DNA of 39,381 nt from Shigella phage ESh6, in sequence record ON528719. One strand, given 5' to 3'. The notes beneath the pieces were generated by a model. It did no database searches, was not told the DNA's origin, and was given only the letters and a program-made list of their open reading frames with translations. Position numbers and translations under genes: made by a program. Below, piece by piece: positions 1 through 39,381 of this stretch. Position 1 is the first letter of the stretch, and each line of letters opens with the position of its first letter.

Positions 1-1047
1 GCCGGAGAAGTTACTAAAGCTGCTGCTGAGGTTTCCAAGGCTGCTGCACATGTGACTACAGCTAATGGACACGCTGACCGGGCCTACACTGAGGCAAACC
101 GCTCACGCGACGAAGCCGACCGCGCGAAACGTGAGGCAGACAAGCTGGGAAATTTCAATGGATTGGCTGGTGCACTTGATAAGGTAGATGGAACCAATGT
201 GCGCTGGAAAGGAGATATTCACACTAACGGGCGCCTTTACCTTACCTCGAATGGTTTCGACTGTGGTCAGTATCAACAGTTCTTTGGTAACGTTCCTAAC
301 CGTTATTCCGTAATGGAATGGGGTGACAAAGATGGGTGGCATCTCTATTCTGAGCGACAAACTGAGGGTGGTACTCCTACGTTGAACCTTAGAGGCCACA
401 TGACAGCAAATGGTAATGTGCGTGCTGCTGGTAACTCCTACGCAAATAACCTATTTGAGATTGACCGAGAGCAAAATTGGCCCGGTCGTGGCGCATTTGC
501 TAACCAGTATGCGGACAGGGCTGCTCCATTTACCAAGACTGGTCGCTTTCAGGCACCAAACGGTTACAGTGAGTATTACCCAATCGTTAAGGCGTTCGTT
601 GAAACACAAGGTCACGGGTATGGTACTGTTGCTACCTTTGGTATGCTGACCTCTGGCGGCGGTAGGTTTGCTAACGGGTGTGTCCATGTTATTGGGGACA
701 ATGGTACTAATGGTCTCTGGCAGTTCGACCCGAACACTGGTGGTTTCCTATCGCGTGGCGACGTACATGTTGGTGATGGTGGTATCGTCTACCAGAACGG
801 TGACATCTATGGCACTGTTTGGGGAGGCCGTCCACTGTCATCATGGCTTCGTGACCAGACCGTAAACCGCATTGCTATGAGTGACGTGAACCATGCACGG
901 CTATGGAACGCTTACGGTGTCAACGATGGCGGTGGTAAGGTAATCACAGGAATCCTCAACGGTAATGCGGACGCATTGATTGATGAGTGCCAATGGCGAG
1001 TAATGCAATACGTCCGTAATGATGGGCAACGTTTCAATATTTACTGA
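1..1047 (+). CDS. 17: Tail fibre protein gp17, 3' portion (5' portion is at the window end; permuted genome)
   Basis: Frame 1 is open from nt 1 to the stop at 1047 (ORF track 52..1047 is the same frame). ...ADRAKREADKLGNFNGLAGALDKVDGTNVRWKG...GFDCGQYQQFF matches the T7 gp17 mid-region from memory; distal ~230 aa diverge. Confidence 0.85.
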   Translation, partial: AGEVTKAAAEVSKAAAHVTTANGHADRAYTEANRSRDEADRAKREADKLGNFNGLAGALDKVDGTNVRWKGDIHTNGRLYLTSNGFDCGQYQQFFGNVPNRYSVMEWGDKDGWHLYSERQTEGGTPTLNLRGHMTANGNVRAAGNSYANNLFEIDREQNWPGRGAFANQYADRAAPFTKTGRFQAPNGYSEYYPIVKAFVETQGHGYGTVATFGMLTSGGGRFANGCVHVIGDNGTNGLWQFDPNTGGFLSRGDVHVGDGGIVYQNGDIYGTVWGGRPLSSWLRDQTVNRIAMSDVNHARLWNAYGVNDGGGKVITGILNGNADALIDECQWRVMQYVRNDGQRFNIY

Positions 1048-1059
1048 TAGGAGGACGAT

Positions 1060-1587
1060 ATGGGAACTTTACGTCACTATAAGAATTTCGTAAATTACAC
1101 TCCAGAACGCACCAAAGAGAATGCGGACCTTCTAGACCACGGAGTCGGTTTCTCAAAGGACGAGAATGGAAATGACTGGTATGAGCTTCGCAAGACATTC
1201 CGCGAGGACACATGGAAACTTGTCTATGCCAAAGACGGTTCGGTAATTCAGTGTGAACAGGATGTTCAGGAGTTAGCCGTTCAGGGTTCTGCTGGTGTTG
1301 TCGAACTTGAGGAAATACCTGCTGAATACTCTCGTTATAACATGATGCAGTGGTGGTGGGACGGTGAGAAGCTCACTTGGTATCCAAGATACTTTGAGAA
1401 CCAGAAGGCCCGTCTAATCTCTATGGCATCCAAGAAGATTGAGCAATATGCTGACTTCATTGCACTTGGGGAGGAGGGATTGGAAGGTCTCCTAAACGCG
1501 TGGCGAGCCTATCGCCTTGCTGTATATAAAGTGGACCTAAGTGTTCTACCTTTTTACGATTGGCCTGAGAAGCCTGAGGACTTATAA
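1060..1587 (+). CDS. Tail fibre assembly (Tfa-like) chaperone candidate; no counterpart in canonical T7
   Basis: 175-aa ORF 12 nt after the gene 17 stop, with GGAGG RBS. C-terminus ...LLNAWRAYRLAVYKVD...DWPEKP resembles the conserved C-terminal motif of lambda/P2-type Tfa proteins (recalled). Confidence 0.5.
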   Translation: MGTLRHYKNFVNYTPERTKENADLLDHGVGFSKDENGNDWYELRKTFREDTWKLVYAKDGSVIQCEQDVQELAVQGSAGVVELEEIPAEYSRYNMMQWWWDGEKLTWYPRYFENQKARLISMASKKIEQYADFIALGEEGLEGLLNAWRAYRLAVYKVDLSVLPFYDWPEKPEDL

Positions 1588-1642
1588 CAACAACACAAGG
1601 AAAGACGTGTAGTCCACGGATGGACTCATTTGGGAGGATATA

Positions 1643-1846
1643 ATGCTGTCTTTAGATTTTAACAACGAGGTAGTGAAGGCTGCTCCGATTGTAGGGACTG
1701 GTGTAGCAGATGGTGCTGCCAGACTCTTTTGGGGACTCTCATTAAACGAGTGGTTCTATATTGCTGCTATCGCCTACACAGTGGTTCAGATTGGTGCCAA
1801 GGTAGTCGATAAGATGATTGACTGGAAGAAAGCTAATAAGGAGTGA
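1643..1846 (+). CDS. 17.5: Holin (T7 gp17.5 homolog)
   Basis: 67-aa ORF with GGAGG RBS; near-identical to T7 gp17.5 from memory (MLSLDFNNE...KVVDKMIDWKKANKE); hydrophobic core. Confidence 0.88.
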   Translation: MLSLDFNNEVVKAAPIVGTGVADGAARLFWGLSLNEWFYIAAIAYTVVQIGAKVVDKMIDWKKANKE

Positions 1847-1849
1847 CGT

Positions 1850-2119
1850 ATGGAAAAAGATAAGAGCCTTATCACGTTCTTAGAGATGTTGGACACTGCG
1901 ATGGCCCAGCGTATGCTTGCTGATTTAGCAAACGACGAGCGTCGGACCCCGCAACTCTACAACGCCATCAACAAACTGTTAGACCGCCACAAGTTCCAGA
2001 TTGGCAAGTTGCAGCCGGATGTTCACATCTTGGGTGGCCTTGCTGGTGCTCTCGAAGAGTACAAAGAGAAAGTAGGTGATAACGGTCTTACGGATGACGA
2101 TATTTACACTTTACAGTGA
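1850..2119 (+). CDS. 18: DNA maturation/packaging protein A, small terminase (gp18)
   Basis: 89-aa ORF, same length and position as T7 gp18, directly after the holin gene. Confidence 0.85.
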   Translation: MEKDKSLITFLEMLDTAMAQRMLADLANDERRTPQLYNAINKLLDRHKFQIGKLQPDVHILGGLAGALEEYKEKVGDNGLTDDDIYTLQ

Positions 2120-2120
2120 T

Positions 2121-2150
2121 ATACTCAAGGTCTCCTACGGGTGGCCTTTA
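2121..2150 (+). other. RNase III processing hairpin (R18.5-like)
   Basis: 'actcaaggtctcctacgggtggccttta' shares the 'aaggtc...gtggcctt' imperfect hairpin motif seen at other intergenic sites in this window. Confidence 0.5.
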
Positions 2151-2211
2151 TGGATGTCATTGTCTATACGAGATGCTCCTATGTGAAATCTGAAAATTAA
2201 CGGGAGGCATT

Positions 2212-2664: not shown

Positions 2665-4425
2665 GTGTCTACTCAATCCAATCGTAATGCGCTCGTTGTG
2701 GCGCAACTGAAAGGTGACTTCGTGGCGTTCCTGTTCGTCTTATGGAAGGCGTTAAACCTTCCTGTACCTACTAAGTGCCAGATAGATATGGCTAAGGTAC
2801 TGGCGAACGGGGACAACAAGAAGTTCATCCTACAGGCTTTCCGTGGTATCGGTAAGTCGTTCATCACTTGTGCGTTCGTTGTGTGGTCCTTATGGCGGGA
2901 CCCTCAGTTGAAGATACTTATCGTATCAGCTTCTAAAGAACGTGCAGACGCTAACTCCATATTCATCAAGAACATCATTGACCTGCTACCGTTTCTCAGT
3001 GAGTTGAAGCCGAGACCCGGACAGCGTGACTCTGTGATTAGCTTTGATGTTGGTCCTGCTAGTCCTGACCACTCTCCTAGTGTGAAATCAGTAGGTATCA
3101 CTGGTCAGTTAACTGGTAGTCGTGCTGATATTATCATCGCGGATGACGTTGAGATTCCGTCTAACAGTGCGACTATGGGTGCCCGTGAGAAACTATGGAC
3201 TCTAGTTCAGGAGTTCGCTGCGCTTCTTAAACCTCTGCCTACATCTCGTGTTATCTACCTTGGTACTCCTCAGACTGAGATGACTCTGTATAAGGAGCTT
3301 GAGGATAACCGTGGGTATACGACTATTATCTGGCCTGCTCTGTACCCAAGGACTCGTGAGGAGAACCTCTACTACTCTCAACGTCTGGCACCAATGCTCC
3401 GTGCGGAGTACGAGGAGAATCCTGAGGCACTGGCTGGGACTCCTACAGACCCTGTTCGATTCGACCGAGACGACCTACGTGAGCGTGAGTTGGAATACGG
3501 TAAGGCTGGCTTTACGTTACAGTTCATGCTTAACCCGAACCTGAGTGATGCCGAGAAGTACCCTCTGAGGCTCCGTGACGCTATCATAGCGGCCTTAGAC
3601 TTAGAGAAGGCACCAATGCATTACCAATGGCTTCCGAACCGTCAGAACATCATTGAGGACCTTCCTAACGTTGGCCTTAAGGGTGATGACCTGTATACAT
3701 ACCACGACTGCTCCAACAACTCTGGTCAGTACCAACAGAAGATTCTGGTCATTGACCCTAGTGGTCGCGGTAAGGATGAAACAGGTTACGCTGTACTGTA
3801 CACCCTCAACGGTTACATCTACCTAATGGAAGCTGGAGGTTTCCGTGATGGTTACTCCGATAAGACCCTTGAGCTACTCGCTAAGAAGGCCAAGCAATGG
3901 GGAGTCCAGACGGTTGTCTACGAGAGTAACTTCGGTGACGGTATGTTTGGTAAGGTGTTCAGTCCTATCCTTCTTAAACACCACAACTGCGCTATGGAAG
4001 AGATTCGTGCTCGTGGTATGAAGGAGATGCGTATTTGTGATACCCTTGAGCCAGTCATGCAGACTCACCGCCTTGTCATTCGAGATGAGGTCATTCGGGC
4101 AGACTACCAGTCCGCTCGTGACGTAGACGGTAAGCATGACGTTAAGTACTCACTGTTCTACCAGATGACCCGTATCACCCGTGAGAAAGGTGCTCTGGCT
4201 CATGATGACCGATTGGATGCTCTTGCGCTAGGCGTTGAGTATCTCCGTGAGTCCATGAAATTGGATTCCGTTAAGGTAGAGGGTGAGGTACTTTCAGACT
4301 TCCTTGAGGAACACATGATGCGACCTACAGTGTCTGCTGCCCACATCATTGAGATGTCTGTAGGAGGAGTTGATGTGTACTCTGAGGACGATGAGGGATA
4401 CGGTACGTCTTTCATTGAGTGGTGA
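2665..4425 (+). CDS. 19: Terminase large subunit / DNA maturation protein B (gp19)
   Basis: 586-aa ORF, same length as T7 gp19 and near-identical from memory; GTG start at 2665 after 'aaggagg'; Walker A-like GIGKS. Confidence 0.95.
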
Positions 4426-4957: not shown

Positions 4958-4980
4958 TAATTCGACTCACTATAGGGAGA
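4958..4980 (+). promoter_or_regulatory. T7 RNAP promoter phiOR (right-origin promoter)
   Basis: 'taattcgactcactatagggaga' matches the 23-bp T7 consensus except T at -13; lies between gene 19 and 19.5. Confidence 0.8.
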
Positions 4981-34576: not shown

Positions 34577-37500
34577 ATGGATAAGTACGATAAGAACGTA
34601 CCAAGTGATTATGATGGTCTGTTCCAAAAGGCGGCTGATGCCAACGGGGTCTCTTACGACCTTTTACGTAAAGTCGCTTGGACAGAATCACGATTTGTGC
34701 CTACAGCAAAATCTAAGACTGGACCATTAGGCGTGATGCAGTTCACCAAGGCAACCGCTAAGGCCCTTGGTCTGCGAGTTACCGATGGTCCAGATGATGA
34801 CCGACTGAACCCTGAGTTGGCTATCAATGCTGCTGCCAAGCACCTTGCTGAACTGGTGAGTAAATTTGATGGGGACGAACTTAAAGCTGCCCTTGCGTAC
34901 AACCAAGGCGAGGGACGCTTGGGTAATCCACAACTTGAGGCGTACTCCAAGGGAGACTTTGCGTCCATCTCTGAGGAAGGACGTAATTACCTGCGTAACC
35001 TTCTGGATGTCGCTAAGTCACCGATGGCTGGACAATTGGAAACCTTTGGAGGTATCACCCCAAAGGGTAAAGGCATTCCGGCTGAGGTAGGATTGGCTGG
35101 AATCGGTCATAGTCAGAAAGTAACACAGGAACTTCCTGAGTCCACAAGTTTTGACGTTAAGGGTATCGAACAGGAGGCTCCGGCGAAACCATTCGCCAAG
35201 GACTTTTGGGAGACCCACGGAGAAACGCTTGACGAATACAACAGTCGTTCAACCTTCTTCGGATTCAAAAATGCTGCCGAAGCTGAACTCTCCAACTCAG
35301 TAGCTGGGATGGCCTTCCGTGCTGGTCGTCTCGATAATGGTTTTGATGTGTTTAAAGACACCATTACGCCGACTCGCTGGAACTCTCACATCTGGACTCC
35401 AGAAGAGTTAGAGAAGATTCGAACCGATGTTAAGAACCCTGCGTACATCAACGTGGTAACTGGCGGTTCCCCTGAGAATCTTGACGACCTCATTAAGCTG
35501 GCTAACGAGAACTTTGAGAATGACTCACTTGCTGCCGAAGCTGGACTTGGTGCCAAACTGAGTGCTGGTATTATCGGTGCTGGTGTGGACCCACTCAGCT
35601 ATGCTCCTATGGTCGGTGTTACTGGTAAGGGCTTTAAGTTAATCAATAAGGCCCTTGTAGTTGGTGCCGAAAGTGCTGCGCTGAACGTTGCATCCGAAGG
35701 TCTCCGCACCTCCGTAGCTGGTGGTGACTCTGACTATGCTGGTGCGGCTTTAGGTGGCTTTGTGTTTGGTGCTGGTATGTCAGCAATCAGTGACGCTATT
35801 GCTGCTGGACTGAAACGTAGTAAACCAGAAGCTGAGTTCGACAATGAGTTCATTGGTCCTATGATGCGAATGGAAGCCCGTGAGACGGCACGCAACGCCA
35901 ACTCTACGGACCTCTCTCGAATGAATACTGAGAACATGAAGTTTGCAGGTGAACATAATGGTGTTCCTTATGAGGACTTACCGACCGAGAAAGGTGCCGT
36001 GGTGTTACACGATGGCTCCGTTCTAAGTGCAAGTAACCCAATCAACCCTAAGACTCTCAAAGAGTTCTCAGAGGTTGACCCTGAGAAGGCTGCGCGAGGA
36101 ATCAAACTGGCTGGGTTCACCGAGATTGGTTTGAAGACCTTAGGGTCTGACGATGCTGACATCCGTAGAGTGGCTATCGACCTCGTTCGCTCTCCTACTG
36201 GTATGCAGTCTGGTGCCTCCGGTAAGTTCGGTGCAACAGCTTCTGATATCCATGAGAGACTTCATGGTACCGACCAGCGTACTTATAATGACTTGTATAA
36301 AGCAATGTCTGACGCTATGAAAGACCCTGAGTTCTCTACTGGTGGGGCTAAGATGTCTCGTGAAGAGACTCGTTACACTATCTATCGCAGAGCAGTATTA
36401 GCTATCGAACGCCCAGAACTACAGAAGGTGCTCACTCCGTCTGAGAGAATCGTTATGGACATCATTAAGCGTCACTTTGACACCAAGCGTGAACTTATGG
36501 AGAACCCAGCAATCTTCGGTAATACGAAGGCTGTTAGTATCTTCCCTGAGAGTCGTCACAAAGGGACTTACGTTCCTCACGTATACGACCGACACGCTAA
36601 GGCGCTGATGATTCAACGCTATGGTGCCGAAGGCTTACAGGAAGGGATTGCTCGTTCGTGGATGAACAGCTACGTCTCCAGACCCGAGGTCAAGGCGAGA
36701 GTCGATGATATGCTTAAGGAAGTACATGGGGTGAAGGAAGTAACGCCAGAGATGGTAGAGAAGTACGCTATGGATAAGGCTTACGGTATCTCCCACTCAG
36801 ACCAGTTCACCAACAGTTCCATAATCGAAGAGAACATTGAGGGCTTAGTAGGTATTGAGAACAACTCATTCCTTGAGGCACGTAACTTGTTTGATTCGGA
36901 CCTATCAATCACTATGCCAGACGGACAGCAATTCTCAGTGAACGACCTAAGGGACTTCGATATGTTCCGCATCATGCCAGCGTATGACCGCCGTATCAAT
37001 GGTGACATCGCCATCATGGGGTCTACTGGTAAAACCACTAAGGAACTTAAGGATGAGATTCTGGCTCTCAAAGCTAAAGCTGAGGGCGACGGTAAGAAGA
37101 CTGGCGAGGTTCATGCTCTTATGGATACCGTTAAGATTCTTACTGGTCGTGCTCGACGTAATAACGACACTGTGTGGGAAACATCGATGCGAGCCATCAA
37201 TGACCTAGGGTTCTTCGCTAAGAACGCCTACATGGGTGCTCAGAACATTACTGAGATTGCTGGGATGTTTGCCACAGGTAACGTGCGTGCTCTCGGTCAC
37301 GGTATCCCAATTCTGCGTGATACACTATACAAGTCTAAACCAGTTTCCGCTAAGGAACTCAAGGAACTCCATGCGTCTCTGTTCGGGAAGGAGGTGGACC
37401 AGTTGATTCGACCTAAACGTGCTGACATTGTGCAGCGCCTAAGGGAAGCAACTGATACCGGACCTGCTGTGGCGAACATCGTAGGGACCTTGAAGTATTC

Positions 37501-38533
37501 CACACAGGAACTGGCTGCTCGCTCTCCATGGACTAAGATGCTGAACGGGACAACTAACTACCTTCTGGATGCTGCGCGTCAAGGGATGCTTGGAGATGTT
37601 ATTAGTGCCACCCTAACAGGTAAGACTACCCGCTGGGAGAAAGAAGGATTCCTTCGTGGTGCCTCAGTAACTCCTGAGCAGATGGCTGGCATCAAGTCTC
37701 TCATCAAGGAACATATGGTACGTGGTGAGGACGGGAAGTTTACCGTCAAGGACAAGCAAGCGTTCTCTATGGACCCTCGCGCTATGGACTTATGGCGACT
37801 TGCTGACAAGGTAGCTGATGAGGCAATGTTGCGTCCGCATAAGGTGTCCTTACAGGATTCCCATGCGTTCGGAGCATTGGGTAAGATGGTTATGCAGTTT
37901 AAGTCTTTCACTATCAAGTCCCTTAACTCTAAGTTCGTTAGAACCTTCTACGATGGTTATAAGAACAACCGAGCGATTGACGCTGCGCTGAGCATCATCA
38001 CCTCTATGGGTCTCGCTGGTGGTTTCTACGCTATGTCTGTACACGTCAAAGCGTATGGGATGCCTAAGGAGAAACGTAAGGAGTACTTGGAGCGCGCACT
38101 GGACCCAACCATGATTGCCCACGCTGCGTTATCTCGTAGTTCTCACTTGGGTGCTCCTTTTGCTATTGCTGACCTAGTTGGCGGTGTTTTAGGGTTCGAG
38201 TCCTCCAAGATGGTTCGCTCCACGATTCTACCTAAGGACACAGTGAAGGAGCGCGACCCTAATAAGCCTTATACCTCGTGGGAGGTAATGGGTAATATGG
38301 GTTCCAACATTCTTGAACAGATGCCATCGGCTGGATTTGTGGCTAACGTTGGGGCTTCCCTGCTTAATACTGCTGGCGTTGTGAATGCTCCAAACAAAGC
38401 TACTGAGCAGGACTTCATGACTGGTCTCATGAACTCCACAAAAGAGTTAGTACCGAACGATCCATTGACGCAACAGCTTGTGTTGAAGATTTATGAGGCG
38501 AATGGTGTTAACTTGAGGGAGCGTCGGAAATAA
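34577..38533 (+). CDS. 16: Internal virion (core) protein D with N-terminal lytic transglycosylase domain, gp16
   Basis: 1318-aa ORF, same length as T7 gp16; N-terminal SLT-like motif ...VAWTESRFVPTAKSKTGPLGVMQFTKATAKALG.... Confidence 0.95.
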   Translation: MDKYDKNVPSDYDGLFQKAADANGVSYDLLRKVAWTESRFVPTAKSKTGPLGVMQFTKATAKALGLRVTDGPDDDRLNPELAINAAAKHLAELVSKFDGDELKAALAYNQGEGRLGNPQLEAYSKGDFASISEEGRNYLRNLLDVAKSPMAGQLETFGGITPKGKGIPAEVGLAGIGHSQKVTQELPESTSFDVKGIEQEAPAKPFAKDFWETHGETLDEYNSRSTFFGFKNAAEAELSNSVAGMAFRAGRLDNGFDVFKDTITPTRWNSHIWTPEELEKIRTDVKNPAYINVVTGGSPENLDDLIKLANENFENDSLAAEAGLGAKLSAGIIGAGVDPLSYAPMVGVTGKGFKLINKALVVGAESAALNVASEGLRTSVAGGDSDYAGAALGGFVFGAGMSAISDAIAAGLKRSKPEAEFDNEFIGPMMRMEARETARNANSTDLSRMNTENMKFAGEHNGVPYEDLPTEKGAVVLHDGSVLSASNPINPKTLKEFSEVDPEKAARGIKLAGFTEIGLKTLGSDDADIRRVAIDLVRSPTGMQSGASGKFGATASDIHERLHGTDQRTYNDLYKAMSDAMKDPEFSTGGAKMSREETRYTIYRRAVLAIERPELQKVLTPSERIVMDIIKRHFDTKRELMENPAIFGNTKAVSIFPESRHKGTYVPHVYDRHAKALMIQRYGAEGLQEGIARSWMNSYVSRPEVKARVDDMLKEVHGVKEVTPEMVEKYAMDKAYGISHSDQFTNSSIIEENIEGLVGIENNSFLEARNLFDSDLSITMPDGQQFSVNDLRDFDMFRIMPAYDRRINGDIAIMGSTGKTTKELKDEILALKAKAEGDGKKTGEVHALMDTVKILTGRARRNNDTVWETSMRAINDLGFFAKNAYMGAQNITEIAGMFATGNVRALGHGIPILRDTLYKSKPVSAKELKELHASLFGKEVDQLIRPKRADIVQRLREATDTGPAVANIVGTLKYSTQELAARSPWTKMLNGTTNYLLDAARQGMLGDVISATLTGKTTRWEKEGFLRGASVTPEQMAGIKSLIKEHMVRGEDGKFTVKDKQAFSMDPRAMDLWRLADKVADEAMLRPHKVSLQDSHAFGALGKMVMQFKSFTIKSLNSKFVRTFYDGYKNNRAIDAALSIITSMGLAGGFYAMSVHVKAYGMPKEKRKEYLERALDPTMIAHAALSRSSHLGAPFAIADLVGGVLGFESSKMVRSTILPKDTVKERDPNKPYTSWEVMGNMGSNILEQMPSAGFVANVGASLLNTAGVVNAPNKATEQDFMTGLMNSTKELVPNDPLTQQLVLKIYEANGVNLRERRK

Positions 38534-38553
38534 TACGACTCACTATAGGGAGA
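38531..38553 (+). promoter_or_regulatory. T7 RNAP class III promoter phi17
   Basis: 'taatacgactcactatagggaga': perfect consensus; overlaps the gene 16 stop. Confidence 0.9.
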
Positions 38554-38604: not shown

Positions 38605-39381
38605 ATGGCTAACGTAATTAAAACCGTTTTGACTTACCAGTTAGATGGCTCCAATCGTGATTTTAATATCCCGTTTGAGTATCTAGCCCGTAAGTTCGTA
38701 GTGGTAACTCTTATTGGGGTAGACCGTAAGGTCCTTACTATCAATACAGACTACCGTTTTGCTACGCGTACTACCATCTCACTGACTAAGGCTTGGGGTC
38801 CGGCAGATGGCTACACTACCATCGAGTTACGTCGAGTAACCTCCACGACAGACCGATTGGTTGACTTTACGGACGGCTCAATCCTCCGTGCGCATGACCT
38901 TAACGTTGCTCAGATTCAAACGATGCACGTAGCGGAAGAGGCCCGTGACCTAACTGCCGATACTATCGGTGTTAATAACGATGGTCATTTGGATGCTCGT
39001 GGTCGTAAGATTGTTAACTTGGCGTATGCCACAAGTGACTATGATGCCGTTCCTTTAAAGCAGGTTAAAGAGCGTGAATACTCTGCATGGAATGCTGTAA
39101 CAAAATCTAACGAACACGCTGACAGGTCCAATAATGAAGCAAACCGTTCTCGTGATGAGGCCAACCGTGCTCAACGTGAAGCTGACCGTTCGACCCAACA
39201 GGCAGGTGTCTCTACGGCACAGGCAGTTGAGTCCAAAACGCAAGCTGACCGTTCCAACTCTGAGGCCAACCGTGCTAAAGGTTATGCTGATAGTATGACC
39301 ACAAGTGTCGCTGAGGCCAAGAAGCAAGCTGACCGTTCCAACTCTGAGGCAAATCGTTCCCGTGATGAGGCCAACCGTGCT
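38605..39381 (+). CDS. 17: Tail fibre protein gp17, 5' portion (continues past the window end into 1..1047)
   Basis: ATG 38605 after 'aaggagg'; MANVIKTVLTYQLDGSNRDFNIPFEYLARKFVVVTLIGVDRKVLTIN... near-identical to the T7 gp17 N-terminal domain, then heptad-rich repeats. No stop before the window end. Confidence 0.92.
   Translation, partial: MANVIKTVLTYQLDGSNRDFNIPFEYLARKFVVVTLIGVDRKVLTINTDYRFATRTTISLTKAWGPADGYTTIELRRVTSTTDRLVDFTDGSILRAHDLNVAQIQTMHVAEEARDLTADTIGVNNDGHLDARGRKIVNLAYATSDYDAVPLKQVKEREYSAWNAVTKSNEHADRSNNEANRSRDEANRAQREADRSTQQAGVSTAQAVESKTQADRSNSEANRAKGYADSMTTSVAEAKKQADRSNSEANRSRDEANRA

Follow-up and report, generated by a model that had tools for sequence, protein, structure and literature searches.

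A putative Mu U-type tail fiber assembly gene beside a mosaic gene 17 in the T7-like Shigella phage ESh6

We find that the open reading frame between tail fiber gene 17 and holin gene 17.5 of Shigella phage ESh6 very probably encodes a Mu U-type tail fiber assembly protein (Tfa), which would serve as a dedicated chaperone of the gene 17 product (gp17). Its chaperone activity, its stoichiometry and its retention on the virion are what we infer by analogy with phage Mu. The frame is now assigned as tfa. The stretch of DNA analyzed here (the window, 39,381 bp) is an entire T7-like genome, circularly permuted with the cut inside gene 17. Over 25 kb it shares 92-95% identity with Teseptimavirus phages, Shigella phage ESh2, Escherichia phage EmilieLinder Bas103 and IME390 among them. 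Read in frame across the window join, the two pieces of gene 17 encode 607 aa. The join is valid because blastn alignments to EmilieLinder and Yanou stay collinear through the window ends.

The tfa frame of 175 aa opens with an ATG at position 1060, 12 nt past the gene 17 stop (TGA, 1045-1047) and on the same strand, and its ribosome-binding site is also kept in ESh2, Yanou and Kvp1. A gap of 55 nt separates tfa from the holin gene, past which the order is small terminase subunit, spanin and large terminase subunit. The T7 genome has no open reading frame between gene 17 (34624-36285) and the holin gene 17.5 (36344-36547) next to it. A first-pass annotation of this DNA, whose feature at 1048-1642 takes in the ribosome-binding site, the tfa frame and the downstream spacer, had described a 175-aa frame equipped with a ribosome-binding site between gene 17 and the holin gene, and had stated that T7 passes directly from 17 to 17.5. 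Both points agree with the sequence and with the T7 annotation, and the C-terminal peptide that it quoted matches the end of the translation (...LEGLLNAWRAYRLAVYKVDLSVLPFYDWPEKPEDL) exactly. The spacer between tfa and the holin gene can be ruled out as the site of a terminator or regulatory hairpin, since it folds no better than its shuffles (z -1.23) and is simply the T7 17/17.5 spacer. Further downstream, just past the large terminase gene, the window carries an HNH homing endonuclease gene that is found at the same place in Yanou, while the EmilieLinder, T7, PGX1 and Leclercia phage annotations have none there.

Table. Features of the gene 17-tfa region and its surroundings, in window coordinates
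Feature	Position	Strand	Basis or remark
T7-type late promoter, phi17 position	38531..38553	+	exact match to TAATACGACTCACTATAGGGAGA; nearest promoter upstream of gene 17 and tfa
Gene 17 5' part, codons 1-259	38605..39381	+	T7-like tail-attachment domain (aa 1-150), then EmilieLinder/Yanou-type coiled-coil shaft
Gene 17 3' part, codons 260-607 and stop	1..1047	+	T7-like to ~aa 389; non-T7 distal part, aa 390-607
Gene 17 last ~67 codons, C-terminal domain	843..1044	+	kept in every tfa-bearing T7-like fiber; homologous to the Mu S' end; proposed Tfa docking/folding target
Shine-Dalgarno AGGAGG of tfa	1049..1054	+	read off the sequence; 5-nt spacer before the ATG
tfa (gene 17.2 in Kvp1 nomenclature), Mu U-type tail fiber assembly protein	1060..1587	+	profile, PDB, AF2, dN/dS
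tfa-holin spacer, common with the T7 17/17.5 spacer (CACAAGGAAAGACGTGTAGTCCACGGATGGACTC...)	1594..1642	+	holds the holin ribosome-binding site; right-hand edge of the replaced block
Gene 17.5, T7-family type II holin	1643..1846	+	PF10746, E 3.7e-34; PHROG 920
HNH homing endonuclease, 147 aa	4463..4906	+	PF13392 HNH_3, E 9.3e-9, and HTH_23

The promoter nearest to the two fiber genes lies at the same relative place as phi17 in the T7 annotation. It is one of 11 T7-promoter matches on the plus strand of the window (at 4958, 5787, 11145, 11220, 11706, 15871, 22499, 25832, 26871, 31239 and 38531), which carry 0-3 mismatches to the T7 consensus where chance would be expected to give none. We therefore conclude that the phage uses T7-specificity promoters, not T3-type ones. 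Because the promoter scan of the window finds no T7 promoter on the way from 38553 through the window join to 4958, gene 17, tfa, 17.5, 18, 18.5 and 19 would all lie on one transcript. The promoter positions thus suggest that tfa is co-transcribed with gene 17 from phi17.

The resemblance to Tfa chaperones, which the first-pass annotation had drawn from a C-terminal pattern and had proposed to check by a profile search against the tail fiber assembly family, is borne out on both counts. The protein scores 41.1 bits against Pfam PF02413 (Caudo_TAP), where the gathering score is 22.1; the alignment (E 2.4e-10) pairs aa 44-173 with profile positions 3-131 of 131. A full-length match to PHROG 136, 'tail fiber assembly protein', has E 2.4e-39 (aa 5-173). 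Among all PDB sequences the sole match is the Mu tail fiber assembly protein U (5YVQ_B; E 2.3e-11, aa 5-173), and the alignment of the two C-termini (ESWERYSVLVSRVD...EWPQKPE in Tfa, NAWRAYRLAVYKVD...DWPEKPE in Mu U) reproduces that pattern. When 1.84 billion representative proteins are scanned exhaustively with HMMER, 262 Tfa relatives emerge at E<=1e-3, nearly all of 165-190 aa, and Y151, W168, P169 and P172 are invariant or nearly so among 81 homologues.

An AF2 model built on an alignment of 81 sequences of relatives has a mean pLDDT of 96.2. The model consists of an N-terminal alpha/beta domain (~aa 1-108) and a C-terminal domain of two helices (109-135 and 142-156), after which comes the tail motif W..YR...VD....WPxxP. 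A Foldseek search of the PDB with this model matches 5YVQ_B (E 1.7e-7, rmsd 2.7 A over 106 columns), with a TM score of 0.81 when normalised to the target (Mu Tfa, 103 resolved residues); the search finds no second structural match at E<=0.001. As the solved Mu structure covers the N-terminal domain only, the role that we give to the C-terminal helices is one that we infer.

Against eight orthologues, the dN/dS of tfa is 0.03-0.07, which indicates strong purifying selection. This ratio, together with the matches to curated family models above threshold, argues that tfa is a real gene and not a chance frame. A reading in which the frame is open by chance, or in which the similarity to Tfa is spurious, is likewise refuted by the PF02413 score above its curated threshold, by the full-length PHROG and PDB matches, by the confident model with its single specific structural match, and by the 262 relatives.

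The fiber that precedes tfa is a mosaic. Its first 181 residues match T7 gp17 (7BOZ). Residues 151-300 form a long coiled coil that is 86-87% identical to those of Yanou and EmilieLinder and 27-34% identical to those of other T7-like phages. From ~aa 297 to 389 the protein is T7-like again, with the 7BOZ alignment reaching T7 residue ~361 and DNA similarity to T7 at window positions 113-326. T7 gp17 aligns to gp17 of this phage at aa 218-405 and to nothing further apart from a short motif. Residues 390-515 are without a T7 counterpart; they (aa 391-515) are 94% identical in ESh2 and 84% in Kvp1. Residues 516-607, by comparison, are conserved (62-80%) in all T7-like fibers that precede tfa. Upstream of this conserved end, at least four types of mid-part occur that are unrelated to one another or highly divergent: that of the window, ESh2, Kvp1 and SPLA4, that of the Leclercia phages, LL2, Seera and ESh10, that of Yanou and EmilieLinder, and that of PGX1. 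We also note that the shaft (39057..39381 and 1..112, aa ~151-297) is ~54 aa longer than that of T7 and contains repeated heptad-rich ADRSNSEANR-like motifs; TRF finds no DNA tandem repeats in the gene 17 shaft. As a three-way mosaic, gp17 joins an EmilieLinder/Yanou-type shaft to an ESh2/Kvp1-type distal part, a combination that is absent from the other retrieved records.

The conserved fiber end is of Mu type. A profile of the last 106 aa of gp17 matches the Mu S' fiber 8JU3_A (8JU3 is Mu gp52) at residues 426-484 of 488 with E 5.3e-9, and the C-terminus as a single sequence matches it with E 1e-4. The alignment of fiber ends has 33 invariant columns. Outside the T7-like phages, the distal part has relatives at 33-35% identity in Mu-like Yersinia phages and at 32-33% in P2-like Fels-2 and in Salmonella phage SJ46. 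The AF2 monomer of aa 390-607, from an alignment of only 3 rows, has a pLDDT of 32.4. These matches substantiate the first-pass claim of a divergent fiber tip, in that the distal part is non-T7 and its end matches the Mu profile. The fiber-end profile also matches T7 gp17 at GNIxGxxWGGxxLxxYLRD, immediately ahead of the T7 tip domain (E 7e-5). The corresponding motif in this phage, GDIYGTVWGGRPLSSWLRD (window ~766..822, gp17 aa 514-549), aligns with T7 GNIQGTKWGGKWLDAYLRD (T7 gp17 aa 429-480). It is plausible, judging from these alignments, that the motif is an ancient recombination joint common to chaperone-independent and chaperone-dependent fiber ends.

DNA comparisons place the boundaries of the exchanged segment. 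Similarity to T7 ends at window position 326 and returns at 1594, and the region ~327-1593, which comprises the distal fiber and tfa, is thus a replacement relative to T7. T7 gene 17 is replaced in its 3' part, starting at ~codon 327, the end point of DNA similarity. Nested within the replacement is an inner block that is conserved in the tfa-bearing phages and runs from ~840-859 (the last ~65 codons of gene 17) through tfa, where the start is defined by DNA similarity to EmilieLinder, Yanou and PGX1. Block and genome have the same GC content (0.485), with a flat GC profile, the block is common to three genera of the Studiervirinae, and the best Tfa relatives that are not T7-like are at most 38% identical among the 1.84 billion representative proteins. 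A recent foreign origin of the cassette is ruled out by the genome-like GC, the flat profile and the lack of a donor above 38% identity. For the same reasons, and because the block occurs in three genera, import from a Mu/P2-type system must be old. The first-pass annotation had called the region a host-range module imported from another phage lineage; it is indeed one non-T7 block, with the qualification that the import is not recent.

To see how widely the arrangement occurs, we turned to a collection of 50,697 phage records. There, tfa is present in 14 T7-like records at no less than 83% identity (range 83-98%), with a length of 174-175 aa and always between gene 17 and holin 17.5, and the fiber end is found in the identical set of 14. 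The carriers are PGX1, ESh2, Yanou, EmilieLinder, Leclercia 10164-302 (two records), 10164RH, LL2 (two records), ESh10, Seera, Kvp1 (two records) and SPLA4, which cover Teseptimavirus, Teetrevirus and Berlinvirus; for comparison, 719 records match window positions 1-2200. The first-pass annotation had raised the prospect of a common gene of this phage subgroup with another assigned function, but tfa is confined to a minority subgroup, and the function annotated there is tail fiber assembly. Beyond the carriers, the next-best Tfa in the collection is 34% identical, and an IMG/VR scan for close Tfa relatives returned Kvp1 alone. Word-index homologue searches gave few clusters, 3 for Tfa against 2 for the fiber end, which did not suffice for deep alignments, and the exhaustive search of representative proteins was used instead. 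In that library the sole intermediate Tfa, 49% identical, lies on a metagenomic T7-like contig (L011), on which a T7-like fiber of a fifth, more distant type ends in ...QWRVMQYVRPNGSAYNIY directly upstream of tfa.

Several records among these matches call for correction or caution. PGX1 and ESh10 label the tfa orthologue 'tail fiber protein', and Seera labels it 'hypothetical protein'; these labels can be corrected to tail fiber assembly protein. In ESh2 (ON528716, ~2829..3440), the tfa frame is without a stop at the orthologous position and continues ~30 codons into the spacer (...PEDLLTTTHKERRVV...); because this record is marked UNVERIFIED and is almost unannotated, the missing stop is probably a sequencing error. 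A partial Salmonella enterica protein, ACVMMT_23685, on a contig of 628 bp, is a fragment of 162 aa that is 75% identical to the distal part of gp17, and is probably phage DNA in a bacterial assembly.

The distribution bears on whether tfa is needed at all. T7 and T3 assemble gp17 without a gene between 17 and 17.5, and most T7-like records are without tfa (the 14 carriers compared to the 719 records above), as would be expected if tfa were a dispensable passenger that was brought in with the fiber end and is no longer needed. This reading is very improbable in view of the strong purifying selection on tfa, its strict co-occurrence with the Mu-like fiber end, and the preservation of its ribosome-binding site and position across three genera. 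We therefore return to a functional chaperone as the preferred reading. In phages isolated on hosts of five genera (Escherichia, Shigella, Cedecea, Leclercia and Serratia), whose fiber mid-parts are very different, Tfa is 91-98% identical, far more conserved than the last 92 aa of the fiber (62-80%). Such a contrast in sequence conservation fits one chaperone for many tips, and is not positive evidence of contact between the two proteins. The pairwise co-divergence of Tfa and fiber end is significant only through the single distant pair from L011 (r 0.27 and p 0.07 without it), and the pairs are non-independent.

Phage Mu offers the closest model for how such a chaperone could work. According to passages of PMC9608196 that draw on North et al. 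2019, Mu Tfa is modular, with an N-terminal domain that binds the distal fiber tip and a conserved C-terminal domain, absent from the solved structure, for which a helical bundle that drives trimerisation has been proposed. By analogy, we propose that the T7-type pyramid and tip domains of gp17 were replaced by a distal part with a Mu S'-type end (the last ~60 residues), where a T7-type tip would fold without a dedicated chaperone gene beside gene 17. Tfa would be made from the late transcript of gp17, from its own strong ribosome-binding site. Three Tfa would then act together as in Mu, with the three gp17 chains bound at their distal end by the N-terminal alpha/beta domains, and with the conserved C-terminal helices of Tfa associated with each other. 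This would bring the three gp17 C-termini into register, such that folding of the trimer starts at the tip, and Tfa may remain on the mature fiber afterwards. A related prediction exists for EmilieLinder Gp60, which is 96.6% identical to the Tfa described here: it has been described as a Mu-like Tfa, and AlphaFold-Multimer predicts a hexameric complex with its own fiber (PMC11990801 S7 Fig). EmilieLinder requires E. coli K-12 in which expression of the O16 O-antigen has been restored. Our search of the literature found no functional experiment on any T7-like Tfa and no literature on Yanou or the Leclercia phages.

A distinct role, which is compatible with that of a chaperone, would be for Tfa to stay on the distal end of the mature fiber, help to bind the host surface and thus be a host-range determinant itself. 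In the passages of PMC9608196 that cite North 2019, Tfa is retained at the distal fiber of the mature Mu virion and contributes to host recognition, and the fold of the N-terminal domain of our Tfa matches that of Mu Tfa. However, near-invariance (91-98%) across five host genera and very different mid-parts is not what a specificity determinant would be expected to show, virions of the myocyanophage Pam3 lack its chaperone of this kind, and we found no virion proteomics in the literature that names gp17.2. We consider such a direct part of Tfa in host binding less likely than not.

At the level of the whole segment, we propose that the distal fiber and tfa would make up one host-range cassette, which would have come into the T7-like lineage at an early time from a fiber system of Mu/P2/P1 type and would now travel between T7-like phages by recombination in conserved flanks. 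The present distribution of the cassette is best explained by exchange among T7-like phages. More tentatively, and with rather more doubt than confidence, we suggest that Tfa and the last ~62 codons of gene 17 could be a universal 3' adaptor for swapping unrelated receptor-binding mid-parts. In this scheme Tfa would read only the Mu S'-like end of ~60 residues, the tfa DNA would be the right-hand homology arm, and the shaft end ADKLGN.N.LAGA would be the left-hand arm.

Comparison with known systems shows which elements of this locus are shared. Gene 17.2 of Kluyvera phage Kvp1 (FJ194439, 2008), an orthologue at the same position, is annotated 'putative phage tail fiber assembly protein', and in the 2008 Kvp1 paper (PMC2579914) genes 17-17.2 are noted only as a region where Kvp1 and phage Berlin differ. 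EmilieLinder Bas103 Gp60 (PQ850602, PLoS Biol 2025) is likewise an orthologue at the same position, with the same gp17 C-terminal domain upstream. It is the fiber mid-part that differs among the T7-like orthologues (Kvp1, EmilieLinder, Yanou, PGX1, ESh2, ESh10, LL2, Leclercia, Seera and SPLA4). Mu U/U' (TfaMu, 5YVQ_B), whose partners are the fibers S/S' (5YVQ, 8JU3), shares with our Tfa the Pfam family, the length of 175 aa, the N-terminal fold and the motif W..Y.....VD....WP.KPE, and its gene, like tfa, is directly downstream of the fiber gene. However, the two proteins are only ~27-29% identical, and Mu is a contractile-tail phage whereas the phage described here is a podovirus with six short kinked fibers. 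Unlike Mu, it has neither an invertible segment nor an alternative S'/U' pair, and the rest of its fiber is T7 gp17.

More distantly, P2 gpG, P1 U and lambda Tfa belong to the same PF02413 family and have the same role, each as a separate chaperone gene downstream of the fiber gene, but they are 25-31% identical to the Tfa here and work with different fibers. Mu-, P2- and P1-family phages are among the lineages with distant Tfa relatives. The T7 gp17 tip (4A0T) solves the same problem, that of trimerising the distal end of a fiber, and has the GNIxGxxWGGxxLxxYLRD motif in common; T7 is without a separate chaperone gene between 17 and 17.5, whereas this phage has a separate protein. Other T7-like fibers and spikes carry intramolecular chaperone domains for this task; in MeretOppenheim Bas102, by contrast with the separate Tfa here, the chaperone is such a domain at the C-terminus. 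Given that orthologues have been in GenBank since 2008 (Kvp1) and described in print in 2025 (EmilieLinder), the tfa arrangement is already known. Our analysis adds no new biology; the map of cassette boundaries and the finding of one conserved Tfa with several unrelated mid-parts are mildly useful extras.

The analysis settles the annotation of the locus: the gene encodes a tail fiber assembly protein (gene 17.2), and the fiber combines a T7 N-terminus and shaft with a Mu-like, putatively chaperone-dependent end. Throughout the orthologue group, one Tfa may serve all tip types by way of the conserved end of ~60 residues. If the universal-adaptor proposal were true, podoviruses would have in this locus a natural plug-and-play cassette for host range, and Tfa might stay on the virion. 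Re-targeting T7-like phages through gp17 tips of this type would require that tfa and no fewer than the last ~60 codons of gene 17 be moved as a unit, as folding of the fiber would otherwise be unlikely.
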